64,000 nt of DNA from an uncultured Methanosarcinales archaeon (lineage in GTDB: Archaea; Nanobdellota; Nanobdellia; Woesearchaeales; ARS49): NCBI GenBank assembly GCA_964637115.1, contig CAZWVL010000004.1:9879-73878 (forward strand), given 5' to 3'. A program made the position numbers and the translations under genes. The notes under the pieces are model-generated. The model was not told the origin of the DNA. It searched no databases and saw nothing but the letters and a program-made list of their open reading frames with translations. Each line of letters begins with the position of its first letter. Positions within the stretch are counted from its first letter, which is position 1. This document shows positions 1,446 to 52,660 of the stretch, in pieces.

Positions 1446-2512
1446 CTGTACAACTCTTCGAATTTGCCATTCTTAACCTGCTTCATTACTTGTTCTTTCT
1501 GCGTAATTCTGCCATCATTGTCAAACGTGATAATGTTAGAAACGCCAGCATAGTCCTTGATTGAGTGCAAATACTGGGAAATCTCGTCTGGTGTTGTTTT
1601 TCCATCACGCAAAGCCGTAGCAACGAGCATAACTGCGTCATATGCATACGCTGCAGAAGGCGAAGGTGGCAATCCAAACTTCTCAGTGTATTTCTTTGCA
1701 AATTCTATTTCACCGGGTCCTTTCGCAGGATACGGATAAATTGTTCCTTCAATTGATGGATATGCTTGGAGAAGCACCGGATTATCAGTTCCAGAGCTTG
1801 AGTACAACGGAATCTTGAGTCCGAGCTCTTGTGCTTGTTTGCTGAATGCACCTTGGCTTGGATAGAACGCAAAAGGTGCGTACACCGCATTAACATTCAA
1901 TTCTTTAATTTGTGAAATCACTGTCTTGAAGTCAGTTTCATCTGGATTTGTTGGGAATTCCTTGACAATTGTCAGTCCTTTTGCTTCATTGACAAAGTTA
2001 TCACGCATTGACTGCGACCAGTCATTCAGACTGTAAACGATAGCTACTTTCTTTATGCCGTTTTTCTTCATATATTGTATTTCGGGCATCACTTCTGCCC
2101 GCTCCGTGATCCATACGTCAAAGAAATACGGCGATGGTTGTGGAACAACGCCTGCTGATGGTGATATAATCAGGACTTTTTTCTCGTTTGCAATAGGGCT
2201 TGCTACCTGGCCAAACCAGGTTGGTCCAACAACGACTTTAAGATTATCCACTTCAGCAAGTTTGTTGATTGCTGTAGCCGTACCCTTGAAATCAGTTTTA
2301 CTATCCTCAACAATTAACTCAAGAGGCCTTCCATTTATGCCGTTGTGAGCATTAATGTCATCAGCCGCCAGCAGTGCGCCGTTTTTCTCTCCTTCTCCCC
2401 AGAACGAAGCCGGGCCGGTGAGATGGAATACACCGCCTATTTTGACTGTGTCAGGAGTTGTTTGTATGCAGGCTGCGAGCAATAACAAAATGATAACTGC
2501 AATCTTTTTCAT
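1442..2512 (-). CDS. ABC transporter substrate-binding lipoprotein, LivJ/LivK (PBP type I) family
   Basis: N-terminus MKKIAVIILLLLAAC (signal plus lipobox Cys). It has the PBP1 signature GxxxPLTGPxAxxGE...DDINAxGGINGRP...ED. Confidence 0.85.
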   Translation of the reverse strand: MKKIAVIILLLLAACIQTTPDTVKIGGVFHLTGPASFWGEGEKNGALLAADDINAHNGINGRPLELIVEDSKTDFKGTATAINKLAEVDNLKVVVGPTWFGQVASPIANEKKVLIISPSAGVVPQPSPYFFDVWITERAEVMPEIQYMKKNGIKKVAIVYSLNDWSQSMRDNFVNEAKGLTIVKEFPTNPDETDFKTVISQIKELNVNAVYAPFAFYPSQGAFSKQAQELGLKIPLYSSSGTDNPVLLQAYPSIEGTIYPYPAKGPGEIEFAKKYTEKFGLPPSPSAAYAYDAVMLVATALRDGKTTPDEISQYLHSIKDYAGVSNIITFDNDGRITQKEQVMKQVKNGKFEELYR

Positions 2513-3636
2513 TTCTGCACCATCTCAAACTTGCCATCTTGCACAACTTTCAGCTTGAATCCAGTCTGAACATTGCCTTTTTCATCAAAGCTGAAATTTC
2601 CCATGAAGCCATCATAGTTCTTAACGTTGTTTAGCAGCCAATCATGCACTTTTTCGCCATCATTGCCAACTGCACGTATCGCATCAACCAAAATTCTGAC
2701 AGTGTCATATGTTGCTGCTGTGTGGAACGGCACTGCCGGGTCTTTTCCATAGCGTTCTTTGTACTTTGCAAGGAACGCTTTGAATTCAAGTTTGTCAGCG
2801 TCGTAATTTGGATCGTAGAAATACACGCCTTCAAGTGCATCGCCTGCTATTGTTTTTGAATTCTCATTGGCAACAGTCGTGAATGTGGTAAACATAGGCG
2901 TTTTAAAGCTGAGTTCGCGTGATTGTTTGATGAAGTGTGCTCCTGTTGTGCCTAGCTGGCTTAAAATCAGTATTGCATCTGGTTTTTCTCGTTTTACTTT
3001 CAAGAGTGTTGTTCTGAAGTCTTTTGTGTCTGGAATGAATTCTTCATCCAGAACTATTTCTCCGCCTAATTTTTCAAATTCTTTCTTGAAATGGTCGCGT
3101 ATGTCAATTGTGTACTCTCTTTGTTCCGTAATTATGGCTGCTTTGGTAAAATTAAACTTCTCGATAAAGTCACGCGCTGGCTGTATTCCAGCTTGTACAT
3201 CTGCATTTCCTGTTCTGAAGACGTATTCTCCTGCATTGTCAATATTGCTTCCGCCTGTAACGGGTGTGATATACACAACTTTTGCTTCATTGACGTATGG
3301 CGCAGCTGCCATTGTGTCGTCGCTGCACGTGCCGCCAATGATTACTTTGACATCATCTACTTCAACTAATTTCTTGATTGCTGTAAGGCCCTGATTTTGC
3401 CCGCATTTTGCATCTTCAACAACAAATTCAATATTCAAATCAGACGCGAGTTCTTCTGCTGCAAGTTTCGCACTATCCACAATATTCTGTCCAAGAGAAG
3501 CAAAATCTCCTGAAAGAATTGTTGAGATGCCGATTTTCATTAAGGGTTTTTCTACTGGTTTTGTTTCTGTTTGTATTTCTGGTTGTGCACACGCTGCCAA
3601 TAGTAACAGCATAATAATCGCAAATACTATTTTCAT
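2509..3636 (-). CDS. ABC transporter substrate-binding lipoprotein, LivK family (paralog 2)
   Basis: MKIVFAIIMLLLLAAC lipobox; contains KIGISTILSGDFASLG. The likely start is the internal ATG (ATGA overlap with the upstream stop); the tool ORF extends to 3678. Confidence 0.85.
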   Translation of the reverse strand: MKIVFAIIMLLLLAACAQPEIQTETKPVEKPLMKIGISTILSGDFASLGQNIVDSAKLAAEELASDLNIEFVVEDAKCGQNQGLTAIKKLVEVDDVKVIIGGTCSDDTMAAAPYVNEAKVVYITPVTGGSNIDNAGEYVFRTGNADVQAGIQPARDFIEKFNFTKAAIITEQREYTIDIRDHFKKEFEKLGGEIVLDEEFIPDTKDFRTTLLKVKREKPDAILILSQLGTTGAHFIKQSRELSFKTPMFTTFTTVANENSKTIAGDALEGVYFYDPNYDADKLEFKAFLAKYKERYGKDPAVPFHTAATYDTVRILVDAIRAVGNDGEKVHDWLLNNVKNYDGFMGNFSFDEKGNVQTGFKLKVVQDGKFEMVQK

Positions 3637-4046
3637 TTCCGCCCTTCTGCAATTAAGCATTCTTTTACATTCTTGCACAGTTCGTCAAGCTCCTCTTGAT
3701 TTTGCACAGCCATACTGCAAGTGTATGTGACCTTTACACAATCGGGTTCTCGATCTATCCACATTTCTTGAGAACGAGAAGTATTATGTCCTGCTTTTTC
3801 AAGGAAGATACGGCGGTTTCCAATCAGCAGGCATTCGTTAGCAAGTGCTTCTTCAAAATTTCGCTTGTTGATTACTCGATACATTCCGAGCGTTATGGAT
3901 CGGCGCTCGTCAAAATACAATAACTCAACATTATTATATGGTGTTGAAATTACAAAATGTTCATTAAAGTTATTATGGCGCTTTCCAACATTCTCCCACT
4001 TGCCCCAGAATTTTTCCATGCTTTTTTCAAGGTTGATTTCTGTCAT
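3633..4046 (-). CDS. hypothetical cytoplasmic protein (137 aa), paralog of 4043..4417
   Basis: ORF with no TM segment. It shares MTEI- at the N-terminus, a YxNVxEL core and a C-terminal LC+xxK...AE..RK with its neighbour. Confidence 0.45.
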   Translation of the reverse strand: MTEINLEKSMEKFWGKWENVGKRHNNFNEHFVISTPYNNVELLYFDERRSITLGMYRVINKRNFEEALANECLLIGNRRIFLEKAGHNTSRSQEMWIDREPDCVKVTYTCSMAVQNQEELDELCKNVKECLIAEGRK

Positions 4047-4417
4047 TTTCTTTCCTCCGCCATCACTTTTTTGATGTCTCTGCAGAGTTTTGTTAGGTAA
4101 GTTTGAGAAGAAACTTGAATGTGATACACATTCCTTAACCCACTACGATCATTAAATCCCATCGTATATAAGTTTCTGATATCATATCCACGTTTTCTAA
4201 GAACATTAATACGATCCAATTCCTTACCTAAATCATGTTTTTTAAATAGAACTATAACAGATAGTTCTAATTCTCTGACGTTATCATAGTAACAAATAGT
4301 TGTACGGGCGTTTATGTCATATGCACCAGATCCCTGAATATACCCATGGAAATGTTTCCTAAACACGTCCTTTATAGATTCGTCAAAGCTGATTTCTGTC
4401 ATCCCGTTTTTCTCCAC
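4043..4417 (-). CDS. hypothetical cytoplasmic protein (124 aa), paralog of 3633..4046
   Basis: Tandem paralog, 4-nt overlaps, embedded between SBP genes. Confidence 0.45.
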   Translation of the reverse strand: MEKNGMTEISFDESIKDVFRKHFHGYIQGSGAYDINARTTICYYDNVRELELSVIVLFKKHDLGKELDRINVLRKRGYDIRNLYTMGFNDRSGLRNVYHIQVSSQTYLTKLCRDIKKVMAEERK

Positions 4418-5487
4418 ATGCCGTTCTCAAATTTCGTCAACATGATCTCGCGGTCTATAATCTGATCACCATTATAGCTCACCACACCACTTACTCCGTT
4501 CATGGTCAAGTTGCGCATGTTGTTGGCAACACACAGTGTTTCCGTGCACCCTTCGTATGCTTTTGCCATTGTCATTGCGTCATCATACAATACTGCGCTT
4601 CCTCGCAAGAAATAAGCCTGCTTCTTGTCTTCCAGTTTTTTCTTGAACGAAACAAAAATAGGGTCAGTGCTCGCTTCATCAACTGCAATATCCGCGCCCA
4701 GAGCATCTTTCAGCACTTCTGGATAATCACGGCTGTTCTCAGAGCTTCCGCACCCAAAACTCTGGAAAGGTATTAGGATTTGAGCGGTAATTCCAAGCTC
4801 TTTTATCTGCTTATACGCGTTCGGGCAATCAGGTGCATACATTGCCAAGATGATAGCAGTGCTCCCTGAATTTTTTATCTTTGTGAATTGTGTTCTGAAA
4901 TCAATGCTTCCCTGATCGTACATCTCAGCTGCGGCAAGTTCGCCAATCTGCTCAACACCCTGCTTGCACAGCAGCGTAAACTCGGCATTTGTGCCGAACA
5001 GCGCAATTCGCTTGTTCTTAGCTTGCGTATACAATTTCTTGCACGCTTCAAAGCCGTCAAGCTGGTCTTTGAACACATAAGTTTTATTCGCTGAAAACGA
5101 ATTGACAACATTTACATAAATGAACGGCACTTTTGCATCTTCAGCTAATGGCGCTATAATGCCAGTGGGCATAACTGTGATGGTAAAAAGTGCATCGACG
5201 TTATCCACGTTGATTAGCTTCGCAGTCGCCGGTGCTACTTGCTTTTTATCGCTTGCAAAATCCTCATACAGCACTTCAACAGGCTTTCCGTTTATTCCAC
5301 CCGCGGCATTAATGTCTTCCACTGCTAGGTCTATTCCATATTTTGAAAACTCGCCATAAAACGCATTCGAGCCCGTTAATGGCAAAACTGCGCCGAATTT
5401 GTATGGTTTTATTTCAGCTTTTTCTACTTTAGCGCATGCTGATAGGAACAATAATGCTACAATTGTAAAGACCAAGAATTGTTTCAT
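4399..5487 (-). CDS. ABC transporter substrate-binding lipoprotein, LivK family (paralog 3)
   Basis: MKQFLVFTIVALLFLSAC lipobox; GAVLPLTGSNAFYGE; DINAAGGINGKPVEV. Confidence 0.85.
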   Translation of the reverse strand: MKQFLVFTIVALLFLSACAKVEKAEIKPYKFGAVLPLTGSNAFYGEFSKYGIDLAVEDINAAGGINGKPVEVLYEDFASDKKQVAPATAKLINVDNVDALFTITVMPTGIIAPLAEDAKVPFIYVNVVNSFSANKTYVFKDQLDGFEACKKLYTQAKNKRIALFGTNAEFTLLCKQGVEQIGELAAAEMYDQGSIDFRTQFTKIKNSGSTAIILAMYAPDCPNAYKQIKELGITAQILIPFQSFGCGSSENSRDYPEVLKDALGADIAVDEASTDPIFVSFKKKLEDKKQAYFLRGSAVLYDDAMTMAKAYEGCTETLCVANNMRNLTMNGVSGVVSYNGDQIIDREIMLTKFENGMWRKTG

Positions 5488-5489
5488 CT

Positions 5490-6566
5490 TTACTCTCCAG
5501 CAAACAATGTCTTTTTGCCGTTCTCAATCTTGTAAATCGGCACTGGTCTTGATGCGTCTCCGTTCGTATTAAAGTAAGAAGAACCTTGCAGCCATTGTCT
5601 TACTGTTTCAGTATCTGTCGTTCTTGTTTCTCTATAAGCCTGTGCTAACACCTTGACAGCCATATGAGCAGCGTCAGATGAAATGCCTGGCTCCTTGCCG
5701 TACTTTTCTGTGTACTTCTTTACGAATTCTTCATCGTATGGAAGCATGTCTATATAGTATGAAATCGCAAAATCATCTGTAGTAATCGCATTTCTTGTTA
5801 ATGCTTCACCAAAGTTGCCTTCTGCGTTGAGCAATATGGCATCAAACTGTTGCTCTTTCATTTTTTTTACTATGTGTGCGGTGTCAATCGGGCCAACTGC
5901 GAGAAAAACAACGTCTGGCTTGAGTGATTTTGCTTTGGTTACTTGTGTTGCGAAGTCATTGCCGTCAAATGCTGTGCCGACAAAGTCTGCAGTCAATTCT
6001 CCGCCGTTTTCTTTCATTAATCGTTCAAAATTTTCTTTGTATGAATCTGACCAGGACCCAGGGGCTCTGAAAATTACAGCATGCTTAATTTTTTCCTGTT
6101 TAATCACCAGTCTATACGCTCTGACATGATTTGGAACTGGTGGCCAGGTTCTGAATAAATACTGGCTTAAGCGGGAATTGTCTTTTGTATTTCCGGTTGA
6201 CGGGTTTATTAGTATTAATTTGGCAGCGTCAGCAATCGGAGCCATTGGTTCAAGCGAGTAGTCCCACGTACCGCCTATAATCGCGTCAATTTTGTCAATT
6301 TCCATCAGTTTTGTAAGTGCAGTAACCGCTCTTTTTCCGTCCGTGCCGTCGTCTTCGTAAATAACAACAATTTTCTTGCCATTTATGCCTCCTGCAGCAT
6401 TTATTTCTTCTACGGCAAGGTCCATTCCGTTTCTCGAGCTTTCACCATAGAATGCTGCAACGCCTGTTAAGCTCAAAACTGCGCCTATCTTGATTTGTTC
6501 GCTTTGCTGAGGCGTGCAAGCTGCTAAAAGCAGCAAAGCTGCTAAAAGAACAAAAAATCCTTTCAT
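5490..6566 (-). CDS. ABC transporter substrate-binding lipoprotein, LivK family (paralog 4)
   Basis: MKGFFVLLAALLLLAAC lipobox; IGAVLSLTGVAAFYGE; EINAAGGINGKKIVV. Start trimmed to the internal ATG. Confidence 0.85.
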   Translation of the reverse strand: MKGFFVLLAALLLLAACTPQQSEQIKIGAVLSLTGVAAFYGESSRNGMDLAVEEINAAGGINGKKIVVIYEDDGTDGKRAVTALTKLMEIDKIDAIIGGTWDYSLEPMAPIADAAKLILINPSTGNTKDNSRLSQYLFRTWPPVPNHVRAYRLVIKQEKIKHAVIFRAPGSWSDSYKENFERLMKENGGELTADFVGTAFDGNDFATQVTKAKSLKPDVVFLAVGPIDTAHIVKKMKEQQFDAILLNAEGNFGEALTRNAITTDDFAISYYIDMLPYDEEFVKKYTEKYGKEPGISSDAAHMAVKVLAQAYRETRTTDTETVRQWLQGSSYFNTNGDASRPVPIYKIENGKKTLFAGE

Positions 6567-6567
6567 T

Positions 6568-7650
6568 TTAATCTTCCAGCGGAACAAATCCGCCATTCTT
6601 GACCTGCATCAGTATGAGCGGTCTGTCAACATCGCCTTTTGAATCAAAGCTGAACGTTCCGCTGACTCCATTGTAGTTCTGCGTTGCGTACAGCTGTTGT
6701 TTTATGCAGTCGGTATCATCGTTGCATTGCTCAACGATTTTTGATATCAATTTCAACGCATCATACGCATTGGCTACAAACCACGAGAAGTTCGGATCGT
6801 TGTACACGTTTGCATATTTCTGCTTGAATTCTTGTGCTTGCTGCGTGCCGGGATTAAATCCTGACGTGTAGACTATTCCTTCTCCTGCGCCTTGGGCAGC
6901 AGTTAAGAATGCTTTATCCTCCATTGCTGGTGTTGTCAAGAATGGTCCTGTATATCCCATTTCTCGGGCGATTTTCAGGTTAATCCCTATGTCTTTTGCA
7001 AATCCTGACGTATAGATGACTTCAGGTTTGGAATCGATTACTTTGCTAATCTGGGTGCGTGCATCGCCTGAGTCTTTGTCATATAGCTCTTGTGCGACAA
7101 GTGTTCCTCCTAATTCTTGGTAGCGTGTGGCAAATGGATTCGCATAAGCAAGCGGCCCTTCTGCATTTGCATTTAGCATTGCTGCTTTTTTCCAGCCTTT
7201 TGAAATGGCATATTCAGCCATTGTTTTGCCATGGCCAGTCGCTGTTTCACGGTTTCTGAATGTGTAATCGCCTGCATCGGTAATCTTTCCTGTAACTGCA
7301 GTTGAGCTCAAAATTATGACTTTCTTTTGTTCTGCAAGTGGCGCGACTGCAAGAACTGAGCCTGAAAGGACAGGGCCGATGATTATCTTCACTCCGTCAA
7401 CATCAGTGAGCTTGTTGAACGCAGTAACTGCTACTTTTGTGTCGCTCTGCTCATCTTCGAATATAACGTCGACGTTGCTGACTTCTTTGAGCGCGAGATT
7501 GATTCCTTTGGTAATTCCTTCTCCATAATTTCCTTGCGCGCCGGTTAACGTCAAAATAATGCCGACTTTGACTTTTTCTGTTGGTTGTTCAACTTGTACG
7601 CATGCGCCCAAAAGCAACAATGCTAATATGACAAAGATTATTTTTTTCAT
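6568..7650 (-). CDS. ABC transporter substrate-binding lipoprotein, LivK family (paralog 5, most diverged)
   Basis: MKKIIFVILALLLLGAC lipobox; VGIILTLTGAQGNYGE. Confidence 0.8.
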   Translation of the reverse strand: MKKIIFVILALLLLGACVQVEQPTEKVKVGIILTLTGAQGNYGEGITKGINLALKEVSNVDVIFEDEQSDTKVAVTAFNKLTDVDGVKIIIGPVLSGSVLAVAPLAEQKKVIILSSTAVTGKITDAGDYTFRNRETATGHGKTMAEYAISKGWKKAAMLNANAEGPLAYANPFATRYQELGGTLVAQELYDKDSGDARTQISKVIDSKPEVIYTSGFAKDIGINLKIAREMGYTGPFLTTPAMEDKAFLTAAQGAGEGIVYTSGFNPGTQQAQEFKQKYANVYNDPNFSWFVANAYDALKLISKIVEQCNDDTDCIKQQLYATQNYNGVSGTFSFDSKGDVDRPLILMQVKNGGFVPLED

Positions 7651-7651
7651 T

Positions 7652-8770
7652 TTATACCTCCACGTTTACCCATTTACCTTCGTTGTACTGAACAATACGA
7701 ATGGGACGAGTGGCATAATGATTACCGTCGAATGCCACGTGTCCTGCAACACCAGTGTAATCGGTTTCTGCGAGCTTGTCGCGTACGCATTCCTTGGTTA
7801 TTTCAGTGCACTTGCCTGCCGCAATAGAAATCTCGTGCATATTATCATAGGCGACTGCTGCGTCTACAGGACCGACAAGTTTTTTGCCAATGCGTGTTTC
7901 AATTTTCTGCATAAATTCAGCGAGTTTTGGTGTTGGCTGTGCTGGGTTGGCTGCTTGGTCTGCGGCATAAGCGTCTTTGAGAATGCGGTTTTTGTCCAGG
8001 TCCTTGACTGCCATTGGGTTTGCAGATAATGCAGTGCCGATGGGCAGGTATAATTGTGGAACAAAGTCCAGCTCAAGCATTTGTTTGTAAATCATGTTGC
8101 AGTCTGGGGGCCAGCAGACAAGAACAACAGCATCTGGTTGTATGCTCTTGAACTTGGTGACAGAAGTTCGCGCATCAGGGTCATTGCTGAGCTTCATTTC
8201 ATTTGCAACAATAGTACCGCCCTTTGTGACAAATTCTTTTTTGAGTGTTTCAAGACAGTCTGCGCTGAAGTCAGCGTCATTTCCGAGGAAGGCAAGGCGT
8301 TTGTGGCCGTTTTTCAGTGCCGTTTGTCCTAATTGTTTGCATTCATTTGCAGCATCACGCAAATCGCTAAATATCCAGGTGTTCTTTCTCGCATAGGTTG
8401 GGACACCAGTAAACCCGAACAATGGGACTGCATTTTGTTCCGCTACTGCGCTTGCGCCGCCTGTAACAGGCGTTGTTATCGAATAGATAAAGTCGACGCC
8501 ATCCTGCTGTATTAGTTTTGTAGTCGCAGTAGTGCCTTTTGCAGCATTATCTGCATCTTCTAGAATGGTTTGAATCTGCCTGCCGTTGATGCCGCCTGCT
8601 GCATTGATTTCTTCCTTTGCCATTTCAAGGGCTGAAACGACATATTCGCCAATCCAGGCATTTGGCCCGGTCATGGGCGCCACAATGCCGACTTTGTATG
8701 GCTGTGATTCTGTTTGTACGCACGCTGCCAAAAGCAGCAGCGTCAAAATTATCATTATTGTTTGTTTCAT
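7652..8770 (-). CDS. ABC transporter substrate-binding lipoprotein, LivK family (paralog 6)
   Basis: MKQTIMIILTLLLLAAC lipobox; VGIVAPMTGPNAWIGE; EINAAGGINGRQIQ. Confidence 0.85.
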   Translation of the reverse strand: MKQTIMIILTLLLLAACVQTESQPYKVGIVAPMTGPNAWIGEYVVSALEMAKEEINAAGGINGRQIQTILEDADNAAKGTTATTKLIQQDGVDFIYSITTPVTGGASAVAEQNAVPLFGFTGVPTYARKNTWIFSDLRDAANECKQLGQTALKNGHKRLAFLGNDADFSADCLETLKKEFVTKGGTIVANEMKLSNDPDARTSVTKFKSIQPDAVVLVCWPPDCNMIYKQMLELDFVPQLYLPIGTALSANPMAVKDLDKNRILKDAYAADQAANPAQPTPKLAEFMQKIETRIGKKLVGPVDAAVAYDNMHEISIAAGKCTEITKECVRDKLAETDYTGVAGHVAFDGNHYATRPIRIVQYNEGKWVNVEV

Positions 8771-8779
8771 TTTTCCACC

Positions 8780-9820
8780 TCAAAACTCCTTCTTCCACTC
8801 GAGCATGACAGCATGGCTGTCATCCCAGTGATTTGTAATTGGATTTTCGTTCAGATCTGCTTTGTACCAGATACGCAATCCGCTGTTGCCGAGCTCAAAT
8901 CGTAAACCGAGCATTGCACCATTGGTATCAGTTGCAAAGTTTCTTCGATATTCGATGCTCGGCGTAATGTCATTCAAGAATGCAAAGTCACCTATGTTGA
9001 GTGCGCCGCGGATTGATGCTTTTTTATCATGGGTGTAGGTTGCATCAATGCCGTAATCTCCTGTATCTTTGTCTACATAAATTTCGGCGTTGCCGAAGCT
9101 GAATGTTTTGAAGGATAATGGGAATGTTAAATCGCCCAAGACGCTAAGGGTGTTATGGTCCTCGTCATCAACGCCGAACACTTTTGCACGTTGTGCCCAC
9201 TGCTTTGAGCCGAGAGTAATACGGGCTTCTCTGAAATCGTTTTTACCGATTTTAATGTAGCTCCAGAGTGCTGCACCGTCTAATTTCAAGCTGTATGAAG
9301 CGTTTGCTTCCCAGTTGTTTCCGTTGTTAATATGTCCACCGGCGTATACTAAAGAGTCTCCAATTTCTGCTGTTAGCACACCGCTGGAATTGCCTTTGCT
9401 GTCAAATGCTGCTTCTAAGCCGAAATTGTCATCAAGTTTTAATCCGCCGAGCCAGATTACTTTGTGTTCATTGTTTTCTCTGTCTAACACATCAAATTCC
9501 AGTCCTGCAAATCCTTGTTTGGTATTGTATGAGAGGTATGCTTTGCCTTGGTCTAATGTTGCAGTATCGCGCCAGCCGAGATTAAGCCTGAAATTATCAT
9601 AGTAAAGGTCTGCACCTATTGCGGAATTGTCCTTGGAAGTTTCACCCATGACTTTGTTTCCTGCATACGAAACAATAGTCTGAGCTGCTTCATCGTGCCA
9701 TGTTTCTGCGTATACGCGTGTTTCCATTTTGACTGGTTTCACGTCCTGCGCAAACGCTCCAGTATAGAGCGCCAGCGCGGAGAGTGATGTCATCACTGCA
9801 TGTTTGAGTCTCTGTAACAT
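8780..9820 (-). CDS. secreted beta-rich protein with bacterial outer-membrane beta-barrel (porin-like) character
   Basis: Signal peptide MLQRLKHAVMTSLSALALYTGAFA|QD. About 320 aa of alternating-hydrophobic amphipathic strands with G, Y, N and D in the turns. The C-terminus is ...AVMLEWKKEF (terminal aromatic). It is the first gene of the minus-strand SBP operon. The tool ORF uses GTG at 9829. Confidence 0.5.
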   Translation of the reverse strand: MLQRLKHAVMTSLSALALYTGAFAQDVKPVKMETRVYAETWHDEAAQTIVSYAGNKVMGETSKDNSAIGADLYYDNFRLNLGWRDTATLDQGKAYLSYNTKQGFAGLEFDVLDRENNEHKVIWLGGLKLDDNFGLEAAFDSKGNSSGVLTAEIGDSLVYAGGHINNGNNWEANASYSLKLDGAALWSYIKIGKNDFREARITLGSKQWAQRAKVFGVDDEDHNTLSVLGDLTFPLSFKTFSFGNAEIYVDKDTGDYGIDATYTHDKKASIRGALNIGDFAFLNDITPSIEYRRNFATDTNGAMLGLRFELGNSGLRIWYKADLNENPITNHWDDSHAVMLEWKKEF

Positions 9821-9880
9821 TTCCACCACCTATGTTCAGTAGTGACATGAAACTAATTTATACTTTTTTATTAAACTATA

Positions 9881-9892
9881 TATACTAGTATA
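9881..9892. promoter_or_regulatory. 12-bp perfect palindrome TATACTAGTATA upstream of AbrB-PhoU paralog 1 and the porin-like gene
   Basis: AT-rich divergent intergenic region 9821..9948 with AGTATA repeats. Confidence 0.35.
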
Positions 9893-9948
9893 AAGTATAA
9901 GTATTAAAGAAAAGGTTTAAATATAAGCCATTGCATCGACGATGTAAT

Positions 9949-10860
9949 ATGAAAAGAAAAGTTGTCCGGCAGGGCGCGGCGACATTAATGGTCTCCCTGC
10001 CAAGCAAGTGGGCGCATAAAGTGCACCTGAAGAAAGGCGATGAGATTGACATAGAGGAATCCAACGGCAATCTAGTGATTTCCAAGGAAAAAGTTGAGAC
10101 CAAAAAGCAGACCACTATCAACATTTCCAGTTATTCAGAATCTTCTATCCGTGTGGCGCTGTGGAACACGTACCGCGCAGGTTACAGCCGCATTGTTGTT
10201 AATTTTTCTGATGAAAAACAGTACAAAATTGTGAAGGACGTAATTAAAAATTACGTCGTTGGCTTTGATGTTACTAAGAAAGAGAAGAATTCGTGCATTG
10301 TTGAAAATATCACAGAGCCCGCAGAAGAACAATTTGACGTTCTTTTCAGGAAAATCCTGTATAATATCTCTTTGTTAATCAACATTACTGAAGAACGGCT
10401 GAGAAATAAGCAAACGAGCGACAATTATAATGAAATTGTACTGAAAATCCACCAATATGACAACTTTTGTCGTCGGGTGATTGCGAAAAGGAATTTGTCC
10501 GGCAGTGAGGCATATTTGTTATGGTCATTCCTCACGTTGCTAATTCACGGACAGAGAGAACTGTACCATTTAAACAGGTACTTAGATAAGAACAAGGTAA
10601 AATTCACGAATTTTGAATTTTATGGCAAATTGAGAAAAATATTTGATTTATTGAACGAAGGATACGTCAAAAAAGACTTATCAAAATTTGAAAAGATTCA
10701 TGAATTGGAAAAAGATATCCTATATCAGGAATTTTATGGTTTGATTCAGAAAAATCAGAAAGAGAATATAGTGCTTTATCACATTGCTGCTGCAATAAGA
10801 CAGTTTTATTTGTCAGTAAGTCCTTTAGTGGGTCTATTATTGGAATCCAATAAGTCGTAG
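9949..10860 (+). CDS. AbrB/SpoVT-domain plus PhoU-like domain regulator (paralog 1 of 3)
   Basis: N-terminus MKRKVVRQGAATLMVSLPSKWAHKVHLKKGDEIDIEE (AbrB swapped-hairpin pattern) followed by a helical ~250-aa domain. Its 3' end overlaps the convergent kinase gene by 55 nt. The tool start at 9931 is TTG. Confidence 0.6.
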   Translation: MKRKVVRQGAATLMVSLPSKWAHKVHLKKGDEIDIEESNGNLVISKEKVETKKQTTINISSYSESSIRVALWNTYRAGYSRIVVNFSDEKQYKIVKDVIKNYVVGFDVTKKEKNSCIVENITEPAEEQFDVLFRKILYNISLLINITEERLRNKQTSDNYNEIVLKIHQYDNFCRRVIAKRNLSGSEAYLLWSFLTLLIHGQRELYHLNRYLDKNKVKFTNFEFYGKLRKIFDLLNEGYVKKDLSKFEKIHELEKDILYQEFYGLIQKNQKENIVLYHIAAAIRQFYLSVSPLVGLLLESNKS

Positions 10861-12566
10861 TGAATTCTTCCTTCATTGTCAGTTATGTGATACAATGCGA
10901 TTGCCCTGTTAATCAGGTTCCTTTTCGTTCCTGAAAGGAACTCTGAATAGCCTGATATTTCTTGGCCGTTTTTATTTGTTTTAGAATAATTCAGACTGTT
11001 TGCTTTTTTGCGTGCTTCAAATAATTCTTCTTTGTCACAGAAATATTCTGCACTGACATCAGCAAGTGTTTTATTGGTTCCAAGTTGATTTTTTAAATAC
11101 AATATTGCATAGAAACGGTATCTGAATTCATCAGGAGTGGTTTTATCATTAAATTTATTCACAAAATCATTCGGCACTAAAACTGAATTTGTGCGCATTT
11201 CTTTGTACTCATCTTGTTTTAATTTTTCGTCTTCCATGAGAGCGCTGCGCATTATTGAATAACATAAGCGCTTGCTCATTCTCCTCATATCCATTGTATT
11301 GTCAAGTGGGTCTGCAAATATTCCTTTTTTCGCCTCTTTTAACGGATTTTCTTGTTCCTTGATTTGCTTGAAATAGGGAATAAACTGTTCTGCAATGTCA
11401 GAATTTTGTAAAAGATAGTCTAATCCGCTGTCAGGATATATTCCTGTCCTTAAGGTTTCGTGTATTGCAGGTTCTTTGAATCGGTCTGCTTTTTCTTGAA
11501 TCTGCATTAATTTAAGGCCGCCAAAAATACCGGTTATAATACCAGCAATAGTTGTAAAACCTACTGCATATTTCCTGATTTTTTGCCACGGAACAATGCG
11601 CCTGTTGACAGCATCTTCAAAGTCTCCTTCGAAATTAAAATGTGCCATATTATCAATATACTTCGGATGTTGGACACTGAGGCAATTGCGGAGCATTTTT
11701 CTGTATTGTCGTGGAACAAGGGCGAGGCGTTTTTCCAGAGCAGCGTCGTGTTCATCAAGATTGACATTTGCTATTTGCTTGCCATCCTGTTTAAGTGTTG
11801 CTTTGAGTATCTTTCCATCGACGAAAATTGGTGTTCCATCTTCATCAGCTACCAATTCAATTTTAAATAGCGGTTCTCCGGTTAAAGCATAGAACATTGT
11901 TGCACCTAATGCATAAAACTCGCTTTGTATTGTTGCCTTGGCTTCTTTTTTGTCAAGGAGTGCATTGAGTATGTTTGGCGCAGTAAATTGTGTTCCACCT
12001 CTGGTCGGCAGGAATGATTCTGTAATGTCTCCGATTTTACCTGCTGTCTGCAGGTCTGAAAGCTTGGCGCTCTCATCACGTATTCCAATGAGTATATTTG
12101 ATGGCTTGATGTCTCTGTGCAAAAGGCCTTCGCGCCAGTGTAAATGTTTCAAGCCTGCTGCAACTTGAGAGAATATGTATTTGAACTTCTCTGGTTCGTT
12201 TATTTTACCAAATCGAACACGTTGCTCTAACGAAATGGCTTCATAATATTCTTCAACTGTGATTGTCTTGTCGCCCGTCTTGAACGCATCATTAATCTCT
12301 ACAATGTTCGGATGCTTGACTTTGTTCAGTGCTAGGACTTCGCGTTCATCCAGGTCACCTTTTGAGCGGTTAATGGCTGTCGTGATTGAATTCTCATCAA
12401 TGTGCTCTTTGGGAATCTTGACCACACGGACCTTTTCCACGCTGCCGTGCTTGTAAAGTGCTTCGTAAACGTCTCTGGTGTGGCCTTCTCCAAGTTTGCG
12501 AATTATCGTATACCCGTTTTCCTTGAGTAATTGCTCTACTTTAGAGTCGAGTTTAGTTGCTGCCAT
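10806..12566 (-). CDS. Hanks-type Ser/Thr protein kinase, single-pass membrane, with a ~230-aa C-terminal domain beyond the TM
   Basis: GEGHTRDVY...VVK (VAIK-like), catalytic loop HRDIKPSNILI, then one TM segment YAVGFTTIAGIITGIFGGLKL. Confidence 0.85.
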   Translation of the reverse strand: MAATKLDSKVEQLLKENGYTIIRKLGEGHTRDVYEALYKHGSVEKVRVVKIPKEHIDENSITTAINRSKGDLDEREVLALNKVKHPNIVEINDAFKTGDKTITVEEYYEAISLEQRVRFGKINEPEKFKYIFSQVAAGLKHLHWREGLLHRDIKPSNILIGIRDESAKLSDLQTAGKIGDITESFLPTRGGTQFTAPNILNALLDKKEAKATIQSEFYALGATMFYALTGEPLFKIELVADEDGTPIFVDGKILKATLKQDGKQIANVNLDEHDAALEKRLALVPRQYRKMLRNCLSVQHPKYIDNMAHFNFEGDFEDAVNRRIVPWQKIRKYAVGFTTIAGIITGIFGGLKLMQIQEKADRFKEPAIHETLRTGIYPDSGLDYLLQNSDIAEQFIPYFKQIKEQENPLKEAKKGIFADPLDNTMDMRRMSKRLCYSIMRSALMEDEKLKQDEYKEMRTNSVLVPNDFVNKFNDKTTPDEFRYRFYAILYLKNQLGTNKTLADVSAEYFCDKEELFEARKKANSLNYSKTNKNGQEISGYSEFLSGTKRNLINRAIALYHITDNEGRIHYDLLDSNNRPTKGLTDK

Positions 12567-12699
12567 CGTTCTCCTTCAGAAGCTTGTTTACGGCAAATTC
12601 TACAAAATGAGACTTGTTGCGAAAAGCCCCGTTTTGTAGTTTTTCCTCTACCTGCTTGATGGTATTCTCGTCTATGGATATGCTGACTTTGACCTTCAT
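12553..12699 (-). CDS. small ribbon-helix-helix (CopG/Arc-like) DNA-binding protein, 48 aa, overlapping the kinase start
   Basis: Hand-translated: MKVKVSISIDENTIKQVEEKLQNGAFRNKSHFVEFAVNKLLKENDGSN, a strand-helix-helix pattern. Its stop lies 11 nt inside the kinase ORF (ATGGCAGCAACTAA). It is below the 60-aa cutoff of the ORF track. Confidence 0.45.
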   Translation of the reverse strand: MKVKVSISIDENTIKQVEEKLQNGAFRNKSHFVEFAVNKLLKENDGSN

Positions 12700-12795: not shown

Positions 12796-12939
12796 ATGAA
12801 ACAGTTCATAATCACCAAGAAGATTGCCAAGCACGGCTCTCAGGCTATTATTGTAGTTCCGAGAGTTCTTGAATCTTATCTAAAGCCAAAGACGTTGGTA
12901 AAATTGACGATTGACGTGTTGGAGGAGCCAGATGAATAA
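12796..12939 (+). CDS. small AbrB/MazE-like protein, 47 aa
   Basis: Hand-translated: MKQFIITKKIAKHGSQAIIVVPRVLESYLKPKTLVKLTIDVLEEPDE. HGSQAIIVVPRVL fits the AbrB/MazE looped-hinge hairpin. Its stop overlaps the ATG of the next ORF (ATGAATAA). Confidence 0.4.
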   Translation: MKQFIITKKIAKHGSQAIIVVPRVLESYLKPKTLVKLTIDVLEEPDE

Positions 12940-13456
12940 TCCTCTAACTATTGACTTCAAACTGCAAAGAGAACATTTTGGTCAACTAATTGATATTGAC
13001 AGAATTGTTTTCCGGCAAGAACCTCATCCTAATCAGGTTGCAATAGCAGAGAGGCGACCTGAATTGTACACGGTTATCAGACGCGGAGACCATGTTGTTG
13101 GCTATGGTTTAGTTTTGCCATTGCGAAAAGCTGCGTTAACGGCTTTGAAAGAAGGAAAAATATGGGAAGATGAACTAAACATCGGCTGTCTAACCGACCG
13201 GTTGCCAGCTGGCTTTTACATTTCTTCAATTGCTGCAATACAAGATGCTTCTGAACGAGAGCGCGCAATGATTGTTGGAAGCACAGTCAGCCCTCCATTC
13301 CGCACACCTTTTGAAACAATTGCAATTCCTATTTCAGAAGCTGGTAACAGAATTTGTAGAAATCTGCTTCGTATGATTCCTGTACGAGCACGCACCGAAG
13401 TGAAAGGAATCGATGGCTATACGCCGACAACATACCAGCGTGGAGGAGCCAAATGA
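12932..13456 (+). CDS. hypothetical protein (174 aa), possibly an acyl-CoA N-acyltransferase-like fold
   Basis: ORF in an operon between the AbrB-like ORF and the APH-like kinase; its stop overlaps the kinase ATG (ATGA). The tool start at 12911 is TTG. The fold call is weak. Confidence 0.4.
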   Translation: MNNPLTIDFKLQREHFGQLIDIDRIVFRQEPHPNQVAIAERRPELYTVIRRGDHVVGYGLVLPLRKAALTALKEGKIWEDELNIGCLTDRLPAGFYISSIAAIQDASERERAMIVGSTVSPPFRTPFETIAIPISEAGNRICRNLLRMIPVRARTEVKGIDGYTPTTYQRGGAK

Positions 13457-15648
13457 AACCGCTTGAACTCCAGCTGAAAGAAATTCTTGGTGTTAAGGAA
13501 TACAACCGTTTTGCAGATACTGTGCTTTTCCCTGCTATCGAGCAGCTTGCTGAGAGCGGAAAGCTGAGCAATTCTGATCTTGCCAAATTGGCTAAATTGA
13601 CAAAGACCTATGGAGCAGGAATTTTTGACGTTGCCGCTTCAGACGTGGGAGAGGCAACCAAGCATAATCTGTCAGACGGCTTCTCAATTATTGCAAAATA
13701 CAAGTTGAATGAGGATTTGGAATTCAATCTGTTCGTGAAGAAATTCAGCGACAAAAAAAGCTTTGACCGGGGTGTTCTCATACAGGAAGAAATTGCGCAG
13801 CATTTGAGAAACACTGATTTGGCAGGCGTCGTTCCAGAACAGCTATATAAAAACCGGGGCAAGCGCATTGTTGTTATGCCGCTGGTCGAGGCAAAATCAC
13901 TCAATGCCGTCTTGCCTGAATCGAAAGACAAGGAAGAATTGCTTAGAAAAACAATAACAGAATATTTGAAAATAACTGATCATATTGGAGCTAAAAAAGT
14001 CTTTGTGCCTCCAAAAAGAAACGCCCTCGGAAAACTCTGGTATGATGATTTCAAACTGCCTTCATTGCAGAATTTCGACAGATTTTTTGCAAAGGGCTTT
14101 GGTGCTGATGAAAAAATTACAGAAAGCTACAAGCAGCACATAGGCAGCCGTTTGAACGGAAATACAGGCGATTTCATCCACGGTGATTTGCACCCAGGCA
14201 ACATTCTGATTAATGACAAGACCCATTTCATAGACTGGGAGCTGGCCGCAAATGGTTTTACTGAATTTGACCTTTACAAATTGTTCACAAAATCCAATGT
14301 GTCTGATGACCTCGAAGACCGTTTGCTTGCATATACTGTTATGACTAAGGAAAAACTGCGTGCAAAGCGCGAAAACAGGCAGCCAGCCAGCGCTGACACG
14401 CACAGATTGCTATTTGAAGCATCTAAGACACGATACAGGTTAAATCAGATTACTCAGGACTTGTTGACTGCTGAACGCTACAACAAGAATGCGCAAAAAG
14501 ATGTAAAACGCCACGACAAACTTGAAAAAATGGCATTAACTGCCTATAATATTGCCCTGCGCCATATAGAAAAAGCTGAAAGTGAGGGAATTCTCAGTGC
14601 TGATTTCAGGCTGACAATTGAAGATTTTGTACAAAAGAACAAGCCATATAACCGTATTAATAATGTTGAATTCGCTCAATTATTGAGCGTATATAATCCT
14701 CACACAACTCTTTCACAGGATAATCTTGTTTCGCACGGCACTGAAATAGGAGCGCCCGTTGACAAAGAATCCAAGCAAAAGAATTTAGAAATTATAAGGA
14801 AGAGTTTGCACAAGAAGGATTGGGGCAAGATTGCAAAACTTGGAATAGCTGCAGCAGTGTTGCTCTGTAGTGCAAGTTATGGTGGACGGAAGTATTTGGA
14901 GAGTGAACTTGCAAGAATAAAACTCGAGGAAAAGGCTAAACAGGAAGACGCCGATAGTTGGTTTAGAAATGATTTCTGCAAAATTTACGAGACGCGTATT
15001 GAGGCTGAGCTGCATGGTGGAAAGATTCGATGGGCTTATACAGAAGCTGACAAGAGACCGTTGGGAAAAGTGCGGTTAATCGAAGATCGTGAGTTGATCA
15101 AAAATACCTGTGACAAGTATAATCTTGACTTACAATTTACCAGGAGAATGTATAAGATAAATGCTGCTTTTGCTAACGTTGAAAATAATAAAATGAGTGA
15201 TAGAGGCATAAATTTCCTTGATCCATATAGATTCGTATATACCAAAGGTTCTGAGGCTGATCATTATGATCCAGTAATCAATCTTGAATTTGGTGCAAAA
15301 AGATTATCGCGATTGTTTGATAAGTATAAAGTGGATAGAAATATGATTAAAAATGGGCATCATGTCAATAATGGCAACGATGCAATAAAGAATAATGATT
15401 CTTCTTTACAACCATTGATTCGGGCATTAAAACAGTTTTATACCTTTCAAAAGAATTATACCGAAGATGAGGAAGATAAAAGATATGAAGAGCAGCTAAG
15501 CGATGATAAAAAATATAATAAAAAGCTTGCACGTGGCGTACGTGAAATCATATACGCCTTGTTGACAAATGGTCCCCAATCTGATTTTAATGGTGATATT
15601 GTATACTTGGAACAATCAGGAATTCCTGACAATTTCATGCGAGAGTAA
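13453..15648 (+). CDS. membrane-anchored APH/choline-kinase-like protein kinase-fold protein (731 aa)
   Basis: Catalytic motif HGDLHPGNILI and IDWE (APH/CAK family), one TM segment (IAKLGIAAAVLLCSASYGG), and a ~250-aa C-terminal domain. Confidence 0.7.
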   Translation: MKPLELQLKEILGVKEYNRFADTVLFPAIEQLAESGKLSNSDLAKLAKLTKTYGAGIFDVAASDVGEATKHNLSDGFSIIAKYKLNEDLEFNLFVKKFSDKKSFDRGVLIQEEIAQHLRNTDLAGVVPEQLYKNRGKRIVVMPLVEAKSLNAVLPESKDKEELLRKTITEYLKITDHIGAKKVFVPPKRNALGKLWYDDFKLPSLQNFDRFFAKGFGADEKITESYKQHIGSRLNGNTGDFIHGDLHPGNILINDKTHFIDWELAANGFTEFDLYKLFTKSNVSDDLEDRLLAYTVMTKEKLRAKRENRQPASADTHRLLFEASKTRYRLNQITQDLLTAERYNKNAQKDVKRHDKLEKMALTAYNIALRHIEKAESEGILSADFRLTIEDFVQKNKPYNRINNVEFAQLLSVYNPHTTLSQDNLVSHGTEIGAPVDKESKQKNLEIIRKSLHKKDWGKIAKLGIAAAVLLCSASYGGRKYLESELARIKLEEKAKQEDADSWFRNDFCKIYETRIEAELHGGKIRWAYTEADKRPLGKVRLIEDRELIKNTCDKYNLDLQFTRRMYKINAAFANVENNKMSDRGINFLDPYRFVYTKGSEADHYDPVINLEFGAKRLSRLFDKYKVDRNMIKNGHHVNNGNDAIKNNDSSLQPLIRALKQFYTFQKNYTEDEEDKRYEEQLSDDKKYNKKLARGVREIIYALLTNGPQSDFNGDIVYLEQSGIPDNFMRE

Positions 15649-16537
15649 GCGTTTGCCCCATCATTCTTACTATTAATTCTGTCATCTCCCGCAAAAAGCG
15701 CAGGACATATGTCTCCTTTGCCGATTTAGTGCTGTTTAGTTTTCTATCGATTTCAAAAGCAATGCTGTCACGCTCTTTTGCGAGTGCAGCTGCTGCTTCA
15801 TACGAGAATTCATAGAATAATCCTTCAAATTTCTTGAAAAGGCGCTGTATTCGGTCATAGAGGGCAATTACCGATGATTCTAATACAACCTTGTTTTTGG
15901 TGATATAGCCGGTCAGCAGCTTGTATTCGTCGCCAAGCTGCTCAAGAAGCATAACAACAGCATACATGACTGGAGTCTTCGAATATTCCGGATACCCATA
16001 TTTGTTTAGAATACGAAAACAATGGTCCGTTACCCTGTTTATGTTGGCTTCCATATCCTCAAGATAGGCGAGGTCTGTTTCTTTTCGTTTTAAGGTTTGA
16101 AGGCTTTCGTCAGCTACGGCGCTTATCATGAAAAATACCCGCCGAAGTATTGGGTCGAATGCGTTTTCAGACACACCCGAAATATCTTTGATGATAAGAT
16201 AATTTTTGCCTTGCTGGATTACTTCCATTCCTATCATTTCCCTGACGCGCTGCTGAATGAGTCTTGCCTTGTTTAACGAGTCAAACTTCACTTCCAGTTC
16301 ATCAACGCCTTCCAAGTATTTTGCAGCAACAATTCTTTTGAGCAAATTGTCAAGCTTGCTTAGATCAATGGTCTCCCGCATATGCTTGGGAACGGTTGGC
16401 GGGGTCATTACAAGCGTCGTATCTTTCTCTTCCAGTTCTATTTCATCACCCGCTTTCAGATTAAGCTTCTTTGTCCACTTGGCAGGCAGTGAAATAGTCA
16501 GTGTTGCCGCTCCCTGCTTGATTATCTTGCGTCGCAT
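15635..16537 (-). CDS. AbrB/SpoVT-domain plus PhoU-like domain regulator (paralog 2 of 3)
   Basis: MRRKIIKQGAATLTISLPAKWTKKLNLKAGDEIELEE. Its 3' end overlaps the convergent APH-like kinase by 14 nt. The tool start at 16558 is TTG. Confidence 0.6.
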   Translation of the reverse strand: MRRKIIKQGAATLTISLPAKWTKKLNLKAGDEIELEEKDTTLVMTPPTVPKHMRETIDLSKLDNLLKRIVAAKYLEGVDELEVKFDSLNKARLIQQRVREMIGMEVIQQGKNYLIIKDISGVSENAFDPILRRVFFMISAVADESLQTLKRKETDLAYLEDMEANINRVTDHCFRILNKYGYPEYSKTPVMYAVVMLLEQLGDEYKLLTGYITKNKVVLESSVIALYDRIQRLFKKFEGLFYEFSYEAAAALAKERDSIAFEIDRKLNSTKSAKETYVLRFLREMTELIVRMMGQTLTLA

Positions 16538-16594
16538 ATCGTCGATAGTCGCTTTCAAGTATATAAATTTTGCCTTTAGAATATAAGAATATGC

Positions 16595-16608
16595 TAGAAT
16601 ATATTCTA
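16595..16608. promoter_or_regulatory. 14-bp perfect palindrome TAGAATATATTCTA in the divergent promoter region of AbrB-PhoU paralog 2
   Basis: It is flanked by three direct AGAATAT repeats (16577-16602) and lies ~60 nt upstream of the 16675 ORF and ~40 nt upstream of the 16537 ORF. Confidence 0.4.
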
Positions 16609-16674
16609 TATGAAAAAAGAATATATTTCCGATAAGTTGTCACTTGTAGAGTAAGACAAGATTTGGGTGGTAAA

Positions 16675-17094
16675 ATGAACAAAAGAAACGATAACGGTCA
16701 TGTCAAATATTCACCGGATGCTTCATTAGTTAACAAGCTCAAGGTTGGAGATCATTATACTGAGATTTGGCAAGGTTTGCCCGATCACCCATTCGAGCCT
16801 TCTGCAACAACAGGTGGCAAGTCAGGCTTAAAGTATGAAACAAATGATAAATACGTCTGGGTTACGCCAAATACTGCTCGTGCACTGGAACAAAATCCGG
16901 ATGAAATTCTGTATGCCAGTATTAAGAAATCTAAAGACAAAGAGTATTGCGCCAGATGGGTAGAATCCATCAGCGGAACTTCCTTTGGAAATACTCTTGA
17001 AAGTGCTATTTCTCGAGCTCAAGAACTGAATATCGAAGAGTTACATAACAGAATCGAGAAGGATCGAAGAAAGAAATTGGAGGCCAAAAAATGA
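16675..17094 (+). CDS. hypothetical protein (~139 aa) leading the plus-strand SBP operon
   Basis: ORF whose stop overlaps the ATG of the following SBP gene (ATGA). The tool start is TTG at 16663. Confidence 0.4.
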   Translation: MNKRNDNGHVKYSPDASLVNKLKVGDHYTEIWQGLPDHPFEPSATTGGKSGLKYETNDKYVWVTPNTARALEQNPDEILYASIKKSKDKEYCARWVESISGTSFGNTLESAISRAQELNIEELHNRIEKDRRKKLEAKK

Positions 17095-52658: not shown

Positions 52659-52660
52659 TT
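52592..52660 (-). promoter_or_regulatory. conserved palindrome-rich 5' coding motif, copy 1 (pilin gene 52119..52658)
   Basis: It encodes CTAFSSFKKLRFSKRG. The DNA contains hairpin CTTCG-aaaaa-CGAAG plus a further inverted repeat. Confidence 0.4.

Follow-up and report, generated by a model that had tools for sequence, protein, structure and literature searches.

Textbooks treat transmembrane beta-barrels as a mark of the outer membranes found in diderm bacteria and in the organelles descended from them, and Omp85 insertases are considered necessary for their assembly. Here we describe a gene for a porin-like barrel protein, at positions 8780 to 9820 on the reverse strand of a 64-kb stretch of archaeal DNA (contig CAZWVL010000004.1; "the window" denotes this whole stretch of 64,000 nucleotides, to which all coordinates refer). 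The protein combines a known fold class with a new sequence family, and it stands in an unexpected domain of life and an unexpected regulatory setting. No Omp85 or TpsB protein has been reported in archaea (PMC4104836), and comparative genomics of anaerobic methanotrophic archaea contrasts archaeal surface layers (S-layers) with the barrel-containing outer membranes of bacteria (PMC9012536).

The described systems closest to this locus differ from it in fold, sequence, or setting. OprD/Occ channels of Pseudomonas and Acinetobacter, which take up amino acids and small solutes upstream of binding-protein-dependent importers, are the most numerous among the top Foldseek matches of our structural model (E = 1e-6 to 1e-4, TM-score about 0.4) and resemble the window protein, as predicted, in a length of ∼350 to 400 amino acids (aa), a monomeric barrel, and an inward-folding segment that narrows the pore. 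They have 18 strands, whereas the window protein has about 20 in the model, shows no sequence similarity to them, does not match the OprD profile PF03573, carries its insert in a turn on the side of the termini and not in an external loop, and belongs to an archaeon without a known outer membrane, lipopolysaccharide, or beta-barrel assembly machinery (BAM). Diderm bacteria also co-encode porins with such importers; in Pseudomonas, for example, OprB accompanies the glucose ATP-binding cassette (ABC) system, an outer channel being co-regulated with the binding proteins of one uptake route. The window barrel likewise shares its operon with binding proteins for uptake, but here these are six lipoprotein paralogs, the permeases and ATPases lie in a separate operon, and control appears to be of a Ser/Thr kinase and AbrB type. 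Within the archaea, Ihomp1/Imp1227 is said to have been described by Burghardt and colleagues in 2007 as the pore of the outer cellular membrane of Ignicoccus hospitalis; it would be a functional analogue if the DPANN archaea considered here have a second, outer membrane, but it is a small alpha-helical oligomer unrelated to the window barrel in sequence and fold.

The highest global TM-scores belong to VDAC, which resembles the predicted window protein in being a minimal barrel: its loops are very short on both faces, and a single internal element occludes its wide lumen. VDAC has 19 strands and an N-terminal helix inside the barrel, lacks a cleavable signal peptide, and is inserted by SAM50 (PMC8292188), in contrast to the Sec-type signal peptide, internal insert, and terminal Phe of the window protein, which neither matches PF01459 nor has any sequence similarity to VDAC. 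The only earlier hint that we found of an outer membrane protein (OMP)-like barrel in a DPANN-affiliated archaeon is A7315_03100 of Candidatus Altiarchaeales archaeon WOR_SM1_79, mentioned in passing and without genomic context as a possible PopA-like barrel (PMC12228718). It represents a 549-aa, 16-stranded, plug-containing, oligomeric PopA-like family that was found by fold search (PMC12228718), and its lineage has been reported to have two membranes (PMC4243693); no relation to the ∼350-aa barrel family was detected. We found no description of this family, or of an OMP-like barrel in Woesearchaeota, in the literature.

Predicted fold, family, and host

The barrel gene starts at an ATG at position 9820 and encodes 346 aa, as indicated by the open reading frame (ORF) list and by alignment with homologs, which bears out the coordinates given in the first-pass annotation of this DNA. 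The full ORF (8780 to 9829, reverse strand) is 349 aa long and begins at an in-frame GTG at 9829, which adds 3 aa. As read from the sequence, the protein opens with a signal peptide (9749 to 9820, reverse strand), MLQRLKHAVMTSLSALALYTGAFA followed by QD, in which a basic n-region precedes a hydrophobic core and an AxA motif marks the predicted cleavage point AFA|QD. This layout is common to nearly all 37 members of the family, and the peptide is modelled as a detached, low-confidence helix. At the other end, the last strand closes on a beta-signal-like HAVMLEWKKEF-COOH (8783 to 8815, reverse strand). The C-terminal residue is F in 26 of the 37 members and W in one, four more end in F plus a short GGK(K) or SK tail, and distant members follow the pattern G-h-x-h-x-F. 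Both the cleavable signal peptide and the aromatic C-terminus (...LEWKKEF) proposed in the first-pass annotation are therefore present in the protein and widespread in its family.

AlphaFold2 (AF2), given the alignment of 37 sequences, predicts an OMP-like barrel with a mean predicted local distance difference test score (pLDDT) of 91.8 and a predicted TM-score (pTM) of 0.83, and all five models have pLDDT values of 90 to 92. The fold is that of one predictor supplied with 37 sequences, the distant members of which came from the exhaustive profile search described below; with the six close sequences only, pLDDT was 37. DSSP assigns 21 strand segments to the model, which we read as 20 strands by taking residues 280 to 282 and 285 to 297 as one bulged strand (349-aa numbering). 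The signal-peptide helix is followed by 14 strands (residues 33 to 207), an insert (208 to 258), and six or seven strands up to residue 348. The insert, a 51-residue non-strand segment between strands 14 and 15 (9056 to 9208, reverse strand), contains two short helices in the model and holds the most conserved motif of the family, VFGVDDxDxNxLSxxGDxTFP, in which N226 is nearly invariant; the acidic version in the window protein is VFGVDDEDHN...GDLTFP. All other connections, on both faces of the barrel, are only 2 to 6 residues long.

The distribution of side chains fits a membrane barrel. One face is hydrophobic and the other polar in 19 of the 20 strands, both in the window protein and in the family average, with a mean difference between faces of 2.6 Kyte-Doolittle units. 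Side chains that point into the lumen are strongly charged or polar, whereas those on the outward faces are uniformly hydrophobic, with aromatic residues at the ends; we infer that in so wide a barrel this hydrophobic face cannot be a core. Foldseek returned 103 matches in the PDB at E ≤ 1e-3, and the top matches listed are all transmembrane barrels with probability 1.00 (OccK/OprD, OmpG, VDAC1, EstA, AaaA, the PapC/FimD ushers, AlgE, PgaA, and BamA). The best TM-scores, to VDAC1, are 0.50 by query and 0.60 by target; scores of 0.4 to 0.6 are usual between barrels of different strand number, and a single family is not assignable. A search of a viral structure library with the barrel model likewise gave porin and autotransporter matches. 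The first-pass annotation had proposed a fold of this kind, with a soluble beta-sandwich or jelly-roll as the structure that would speak against it, and the model predicts, with high confidence, an OMP-like beta-barrel and neither of those two.

Relatives of the protein are few. Five close homologs (58 to 100% identity) came from a word-indexed search of 5.8 billion clusters. When 1.84 billion representatives were searched exhaustively with a profile, 36 proteins reached E ≤ 1e-3, nearly all of them 320 to 410 aa long; a word-indexed profile search with the 37-sequence alignment added one further protein. Against 24,736 Pfam and 18,950 NCBIfam models, the window protein has no Pfam match at E ≤ 1 and no NCBIfam match at E ≤ 10, nor does it match any PADLOC model; none of the 37 members matches an OMP family in Pfam at E ≤ 0.1, and searches of PDB sequences with the single sequence or the family profile matched nothing meaningful. 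Peptide patterns from alignment A5 retrieved no metagenomic relatives, the 37-sequence alignment being too diverged for such patterns, and neither the close barrel clade nor the conserved DNA motif described below was found on viral contigs. NCBI names exist for two member clusters, in each case "Candidatus Nanoarchaeia archaeon," and archaeal markers stand beside other members: L7Ae, S28e, and L24e at locus L010; aRF1, Sec61-beta, and NAC at L016; and HTH_45 and CARDB at L007 (L numbers denote individual loci). Every family member with a name or an examined context is archaeal. By sequence, this appears to be a rare, new family, confined as far as seen to DPANN (Woesearchaeota/Nanoarchaeia). 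The possibility raised in the first-pass annotation, that close homologs might turn out to be widespread archaeal secreted proteins, holds in part: close homologs do come from archaea, yet few of them exist, and they too are barrels. One relative, P0037 (1369 aa), gives six separate profile matches, all around residues 173 to 241 (strands 12 to 14 plus the conserved insert), which suggests that this segment is repeated in it.

The host lineage was assigned from neighbouring genes and from the names that submitters gave to RadA relatives. Genes in the window code for RadA/Rad51 with an HHH_5 domain, for a protein resembling RPA, and for an RFC-like AAA+ protein, in agreement with the archaeal context recognized in the first-pass annotation. 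The best named relatives of the window RadA are RadA proteins of Woesearchaeota/Nanoarchaeia (75 to 88% identity, many entries), and the host is therefore a DPANN archaeon of the Woesearchaeota type. We rejected an origin in Methanosarcinales, which has no representative among the named RadA relatives and had as its sole support the title of one metagenome-assembled genome (MAG). The contig in question, CAZCCU010000001.1 (GCA_964497645.1; 99 kb; loci L001 and L006), is titled "uncultured Methanosarcinales archaeon" and is syntenic with the window. Judging from its sequence, it is of the same lineage as the window; the MAG label or the bin is probably wrong, and the contig may have come from a symbiont that was binned together with its host. 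How unreliable MAG labels can be is shown by one RadA relative that is labelled "Binatia bacterium." Between the window and L001, identity is 90% for the regulator, 86% for the kinase, and 86% for RFC but only 60.5% for the barrel, a faster divergence that resembles that of surface-exposed proteins.

Operon, control region, and variable cargo

As the first-pass annotation had noted, the barrel gene leads an operon of solute-binding proteins. Six Peripla_BP_6 genes follow it on the reverse strand, and the first of them begins 9 nt after the barrel stop (7652 to 8770; Pfam E = 1.4e-48; lipobox LLLAAC). The other five lie at 6568 to 7650, 5490 to 6596, 4399 to 5487, 2509 to 3678, and 1442 to 2512, with two small ORFs (3633 to 4417) among them, and the genes from 1442 to 8770 are tightly spaced or overlapping. 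All six match Peripla_BP_6 (PF13458) over their full length (E = 1e-35 to 1e-57), and lipoboxes (LLLAAC or LLLGAC) are visible in the first three. The order of barrel and then binding protein is found only in the close clade (the window and L001 to L005). A LivH/LivM/LivG/LivF-type ABC importer with two permeases and two ATPases (19726 to 22851, forward strand) lies in a second operon, which is headed by a paralogous kinase/AbrB pair; its genes match LivHMGF/Urt models of NCBIfam below the equivalog cut-offs. The Liv/Urt matches of the binding proteins fall far below those cut-offs and do not assign a substrate; the six binding proteins of the barrel operon most likely serve this importer.

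Two more binding proteins (17091 to 19267) are encoded for the same single set of Liv-type permeases and ATPases, and the binding-protein set as a whole is unusually large for an organism with a reduced genome. Interspersed among the binding-protein genes of both operons are genes for small cytoplasmic proteins that start with MTD[QE]LSL[DE]E[LV]..LG.KV..W and have no Pfam match (358 to 798, 795 to 1445, and 19293 to 19679; possible further examples at 3633 to 4046, 4043 to 4417, and 16663 to 17094).

A regulator of ∼300 aa is encoded divergently from the barrel (9949 to 10860, forward strand), with an N-terminal SpoVT/AbrB (MazE-like) domain (PF04014; E = 6e-7; 29.8 bits against a cut-off of 24.7) that is matched by all 11 orthologs and paralogs, and a helical C-terminal domain. 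The C-terminal ∼250 aa correspond to no known domain, and a PDB profile search gave only noise; a match to PhoU is seen in 1 of the 11 members, at E = 0.044. Converging on the regulator is a membrane Ser/Thr kinase (10806 to 12566, reverse strand; Pfam Pkinase PF00069, E = 3.3e-32) that consists of a presumably cytoplasmic Hanks-type domain (residues 19 to 298), a hydrophobic segment (∼335 to 356), and a conserved C-terminal domain of ∼230 aa, with the catalytic loop HRDIKPSN kept in the alignment of its orthologs. Because a single hydrophobic segment is followed by a conserved ∼230-aa domain, the predicted topology resembles that of a receptor kinase with an external sensor. The kinase start is overlapped by 14 nt by a 48-aa ORF with a ribbon-helix-helix-like sequence pattern (12553 to 12699, reverse strand), and homologous small ORFs precede the kinase in L001 and L017.

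This arrangement recurs across the family: the regulator is divergent from the barrel, a kinase of 550 to 700 aa converges on or overlaps the 3′ end of the regulator, and an ORF of ∼50 aa usually stands before the kinase. It is present at 9 of 11 distinct loci (the window, L001, L010, L012, L013, L014, L015, L017, and L018); the exceptions are L007 and L016, the latter with a divergent TrmB-type regulator. Compared with the defence models of PADLOC, the kinase shows generic domain similarity only, and the barrel, regulator, and small ORF have no match. Facing the 48-aa ORF, a 47-aa mini-AbrB-like ORF (12796 to 12939, forward strand) heads an operon with an APH-like kinase; homologs of one or the other mini-gene precede the kinase in L001, L013, L014, L015, and L017, and at L041 a mini-AbrB-type ORF is itself the gene in the cargo position.

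Barrel and regulator are separated by an AT-rich, divergent control region of 128 bp (9821 to 9948). Read toward the barrel, it contains a TATA/BRE-like box (BRE, B recognition element) for the regulator, a palindrome, another TATA/BRE-like box, and, ahead of the barrel ATG, the ribosome-binding site GGTGG; by comparison with the archaeal consensus, the two boxes are putative promoters. The spacer is nearly identical in L001 and conserved in L010, L012, L013, and L014, and ∼70 bp can be aligned across loci despite identities of 29 to 59% between regulators and 24 to 33% between barrels. Its core is a conserved 30-nt motif, TATACTAGTATATATAGTTTAATAAAAAAG (9863 to 9892, reverse strand), a candidate operator that includes the perfect palindrome TATACTAGTATA at 9881 to 9892. 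The 30-nt core is unique in the window and was matched in none of 100 shuffles; 29 nt of it are almost invariant among loci whose proteins retain only about 25 to 45% identity. The spacer of the second AbrB-regulator operon also holds a perfect palindrome, TAGAATATATTCTA (16595 to 16608), between TATA-like boxes; its layout parallels that of the barrel locus, but the operator sequence differs.

Scanning metagenomes with a degenerate 29-nt core identified 23 loci, several of them on contigs of 0.6 to 0.87 Mb. Near-complete contigs with the module are CAZNJU010000001.1 (760 kb), Ga0315274_10000001 (831 kb), Ga0080064_1000007 (867 kb), and Ga0268280_1000001 (600 kb). Wherever the flank is present, the motif abuts an ortholog of the regulator (E = 1e-47 to 1e-123) with the kinase behind it, but the gene driven in the opposite direction varies. 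It belongs to the barrel family in five motif loci; in most others it encodes a different secreted protein, rich in Gly, Ser, Thr, and Asn, of 234 to 404 aa and with a similar signal peptide (MK..I[KR]N...). One motif locus has a binding protein directly as cargo, and two have a receiver-domain-like protein. The other cargo, 234 to 498 aa long, falls into at least four families (in L022/L025, L026, L027, L031, L032, L033/L035, L036, and L038), and several of these proteins end in ...AKVKF, ...LRAKF, ...VKFKVKF, ...YSIGF, or ...SFGGKK. No homology between the other cargo and the barrel was detectable beyond the signal peptide (hhalign probability up to 82%, over residues 1 to 30 only), and a beta-moment statistic separates these proteins weakly from controls; they may be barrels of other sizes. 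Since the motif stands beside the same regulator and kinase while the cargo differs, we recognize a constant kinase/regulator/promoter cassette with a variable, mostly secreted and beta-rich cargo. The signal peptide with a long basic n-region, M-K/T-x-x-[IL]-x-[KR]-[IL]-[KR]-[NKQ]..., is common to unrelated cargo (L019 to L041), as if promoter, 5′ end, and export signal acted like one swappable cassette.

Proposed function and rival explanations

We favor the reading that the barrel is a regulated, lipid-embedded solute channel, at somewhat better than even odds (about 0.55). The protein would be exported by the Sec pathway, cleaved by signal peptidase after AFA, and folded into a barrel of ∼20 strands with a lipid-facing exterior and a charged or polar lumen. 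Channels of this type are otherwise known only in the outer membranes of bacteria, mitochondria, and plastids. The acidic insert (residues 208 to 258), which strand parity places on the same side as both termini, would probably fold into the lumen and narrow or plug it. Between the two promoters, the palindrome TATACTAGTATA is most likely the site where the AbrB-type regulator binds and so controls both itself and the barrel operon, and the extracellular domain of the kinase most likely senses an outside cue (a nutrient, the state of the envelope, or contact with a host) and modulates the regulator. Because the barrel is presumably co-transcribed with six lipid-anchored binding proteins that would feed a LivHMGF-type ABC importer, its role would lie in the acquisition of solutes, possibly of the amino-acid or amide type. 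The gene, its family, the predicted fold, the amphipathic strands, the conserved synteny, and the conserved DNA motif are established, whereas membrane insertion, channel activity, the plug, operator binding, signalling from kinase to regulator, and the class of substrate are all parts of this proposal that we infer.

The lipid layer that holds such a channel could belong to the archaeon, as an outer layer, or to a host cell, as its membrane. No candidate Omp85/BamA is present among the ORFs of the 64-kb window, and the cultured DPANN archaeon ARM-1 has an S-layer as its outer layer (PMC11329633). Binding proteins in the form of lipoproteins are a monoderm solution, which is set against reports of DPANN cells with two membranes, namely ARMAN and SM1/Altiarchaeum (PMC4243693). 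The double-membrane archaeon considered in the first-pass annotation is neither established nor refuted by our results. We offer, tentatively and as a possibility well short of even odds, that DPANN archaea of the Woesearchaeota type possess an OMP-like barrel repertoire of their own, set in a lipid outer layer of their own and assembled without Omp85. The repertoire would comprise the ∼20-stranded family together with other secreted beta-rich families that have the same signal peptide, often a C-terminal Phe, and the same cassette. If true, transmembrane beta-barrels and a diderm-like envelope would both have arisen within the Archaea, either independently or at a very ancient date.

A pore directed at the host is an unlikely alternative, although it is attractive for an ectosymbiont and would explain a barrel in an organism without a known outer membrane. 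The exported protein would insert into a host membrane, possibly the outer membrane of a Gram-negative bacterium by way of the host BAM; leaked nutrients would be captured by the co-expressed binding proteins, and the receptor kinase would switch the operon on at contact. Most DPANN archaea live as obligate ectosymbionts and have small, reduced genomes (PMC11329633), and the C-terminal F pattern matches what is recognized by BAM and by the mitochondrial sorting and assembly machinery, SAM (PMC8292188), while no Omp85 is known from archaea (PMC4104836). Fast evolution of the barrel and variable cargo behind a constant cassette are also fitting for genes of host interaction, and an outward-facing Amidase_3 peptidoglycan hydrolase domain encoded elsewhere in the window hints at bacterial contact. 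However, no delivery system is evident, there is no precedent for an archaeal protein assembled by a bacterial BAM, and the link to lipoprotein binding proteins fits a channel in the archaeon's own envelope equally well; the idea is entirely conjectural. More doubtful is a role other than that of a channel, in which the barrel would be secreted or associated with the S-layer and its hydrophobic belt would either be hidden within an oligomer or serve to bind lipids or other hydrophobic ligands, for example as a device that scavenges or traps lipids for an organism unable to make its own. All loops are very short, unlike those of typical surface-exposed bacterial porins, S-layers occur in cultured DPANN (PMC11329633), and porin-like proteins that oligomerize and trap lipids exist in the PopA superfamily (PMC12228718), but a charged or polar lumen, a hydrophobic outside, and aromatic ends are characteristic of barrels embedded in a bilayer, the fold matches are without exception integral membrane barrels, and the presumed co-transcription with solute-binding proteins points to the uptake of small molecules.

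The first-pass annotation had suggested a horizontally acquired porin put to new use, and as a recent event this now seems very improbable. The fold class and C-terminal Phe are bacterial hallmarks, and bacterial-type genes such as Amidase_3 do occur in DPANN genomes, yet the 37 members match no OMP model in Pfam or NCBIfam and no PDB sequence even by profile, no bacterial family is matched, and all relatives with a name or context are archaeal and of DPANN type. The gene sits, moreover, in an archaeal promoter/operator cassette kept across deep divergence, and its composition resembles that of its neighbours (G+C content of 0.44 at the barrel locus versus about 0.42 in the rest of the window). 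A transfer in the distant past, with later divergence that has erased any recognizable resemblance, is possible. We give equally little credence to a prediction artefact, in which a beta-rich protein other than a barrel would have been matched to OMPs through a generic beta-meander. The modest Foldseek TM-scores, with a root mean square deviation of about 10 Å, and the low pLDDT from the shallow alignment would fit an artefact, but the five concordant AF2 models and the Foldseek matches exclusively to barrels at probability 1.00 would not, and the evidence from the strict two-residue periodicity, the spacing of hairpins, and the aromatic last residue does not depend on the predictor.

Whatever its setting, the family implies a DPANN lipid outer layer with a barrel proteome, barrels planted in host membranes as a means of tapping nutrients, or some other arrangement, and each option bears on how very small, uncultured symbionts feed and on the evolution of beta-barrels and double envelopes. 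Direct tests of the barrel are feasible, since so small a protein can be expressed and reconstituted, and the nearly invariant DNA motif provides a handle for finding the whole regulon in metagenomes.

Further features of the window

The window contains three kinase-like/AbrB pairs, of which one has a Hanks-type and two have APH-like kinases. The second pair (13453 to 15648 and 15635 to 16558) stands at the head of the operon that contains two further binding proteins and the LivHMGF-type genes, and the third lies at 59418 to 61190 and 61317 to 62219. The pairing looks like a general archaeal signalling pair that replaces two-component systems. The ORF that follows the third AbrB-like gene (62812 to 63873) was considered as a paralog of the barrel and rejected (hhalign probability, 0.1). 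No tRNA or Rfam element was found in the 64-kb window.

Within 52119 to 55259, a gene on the reverse strand (53644 to 54699) encodes a membrane-anchored Amidase_3 (N-acetylmuramoyl-L-alanine amidase) protein. Its neighbours are four short ORFs whose N-terminal segments are hydrophobic and pilin-like, and finding a peptidoglycan hydrolase in archaeal DNA suggests that the organism interacts with bacteria.

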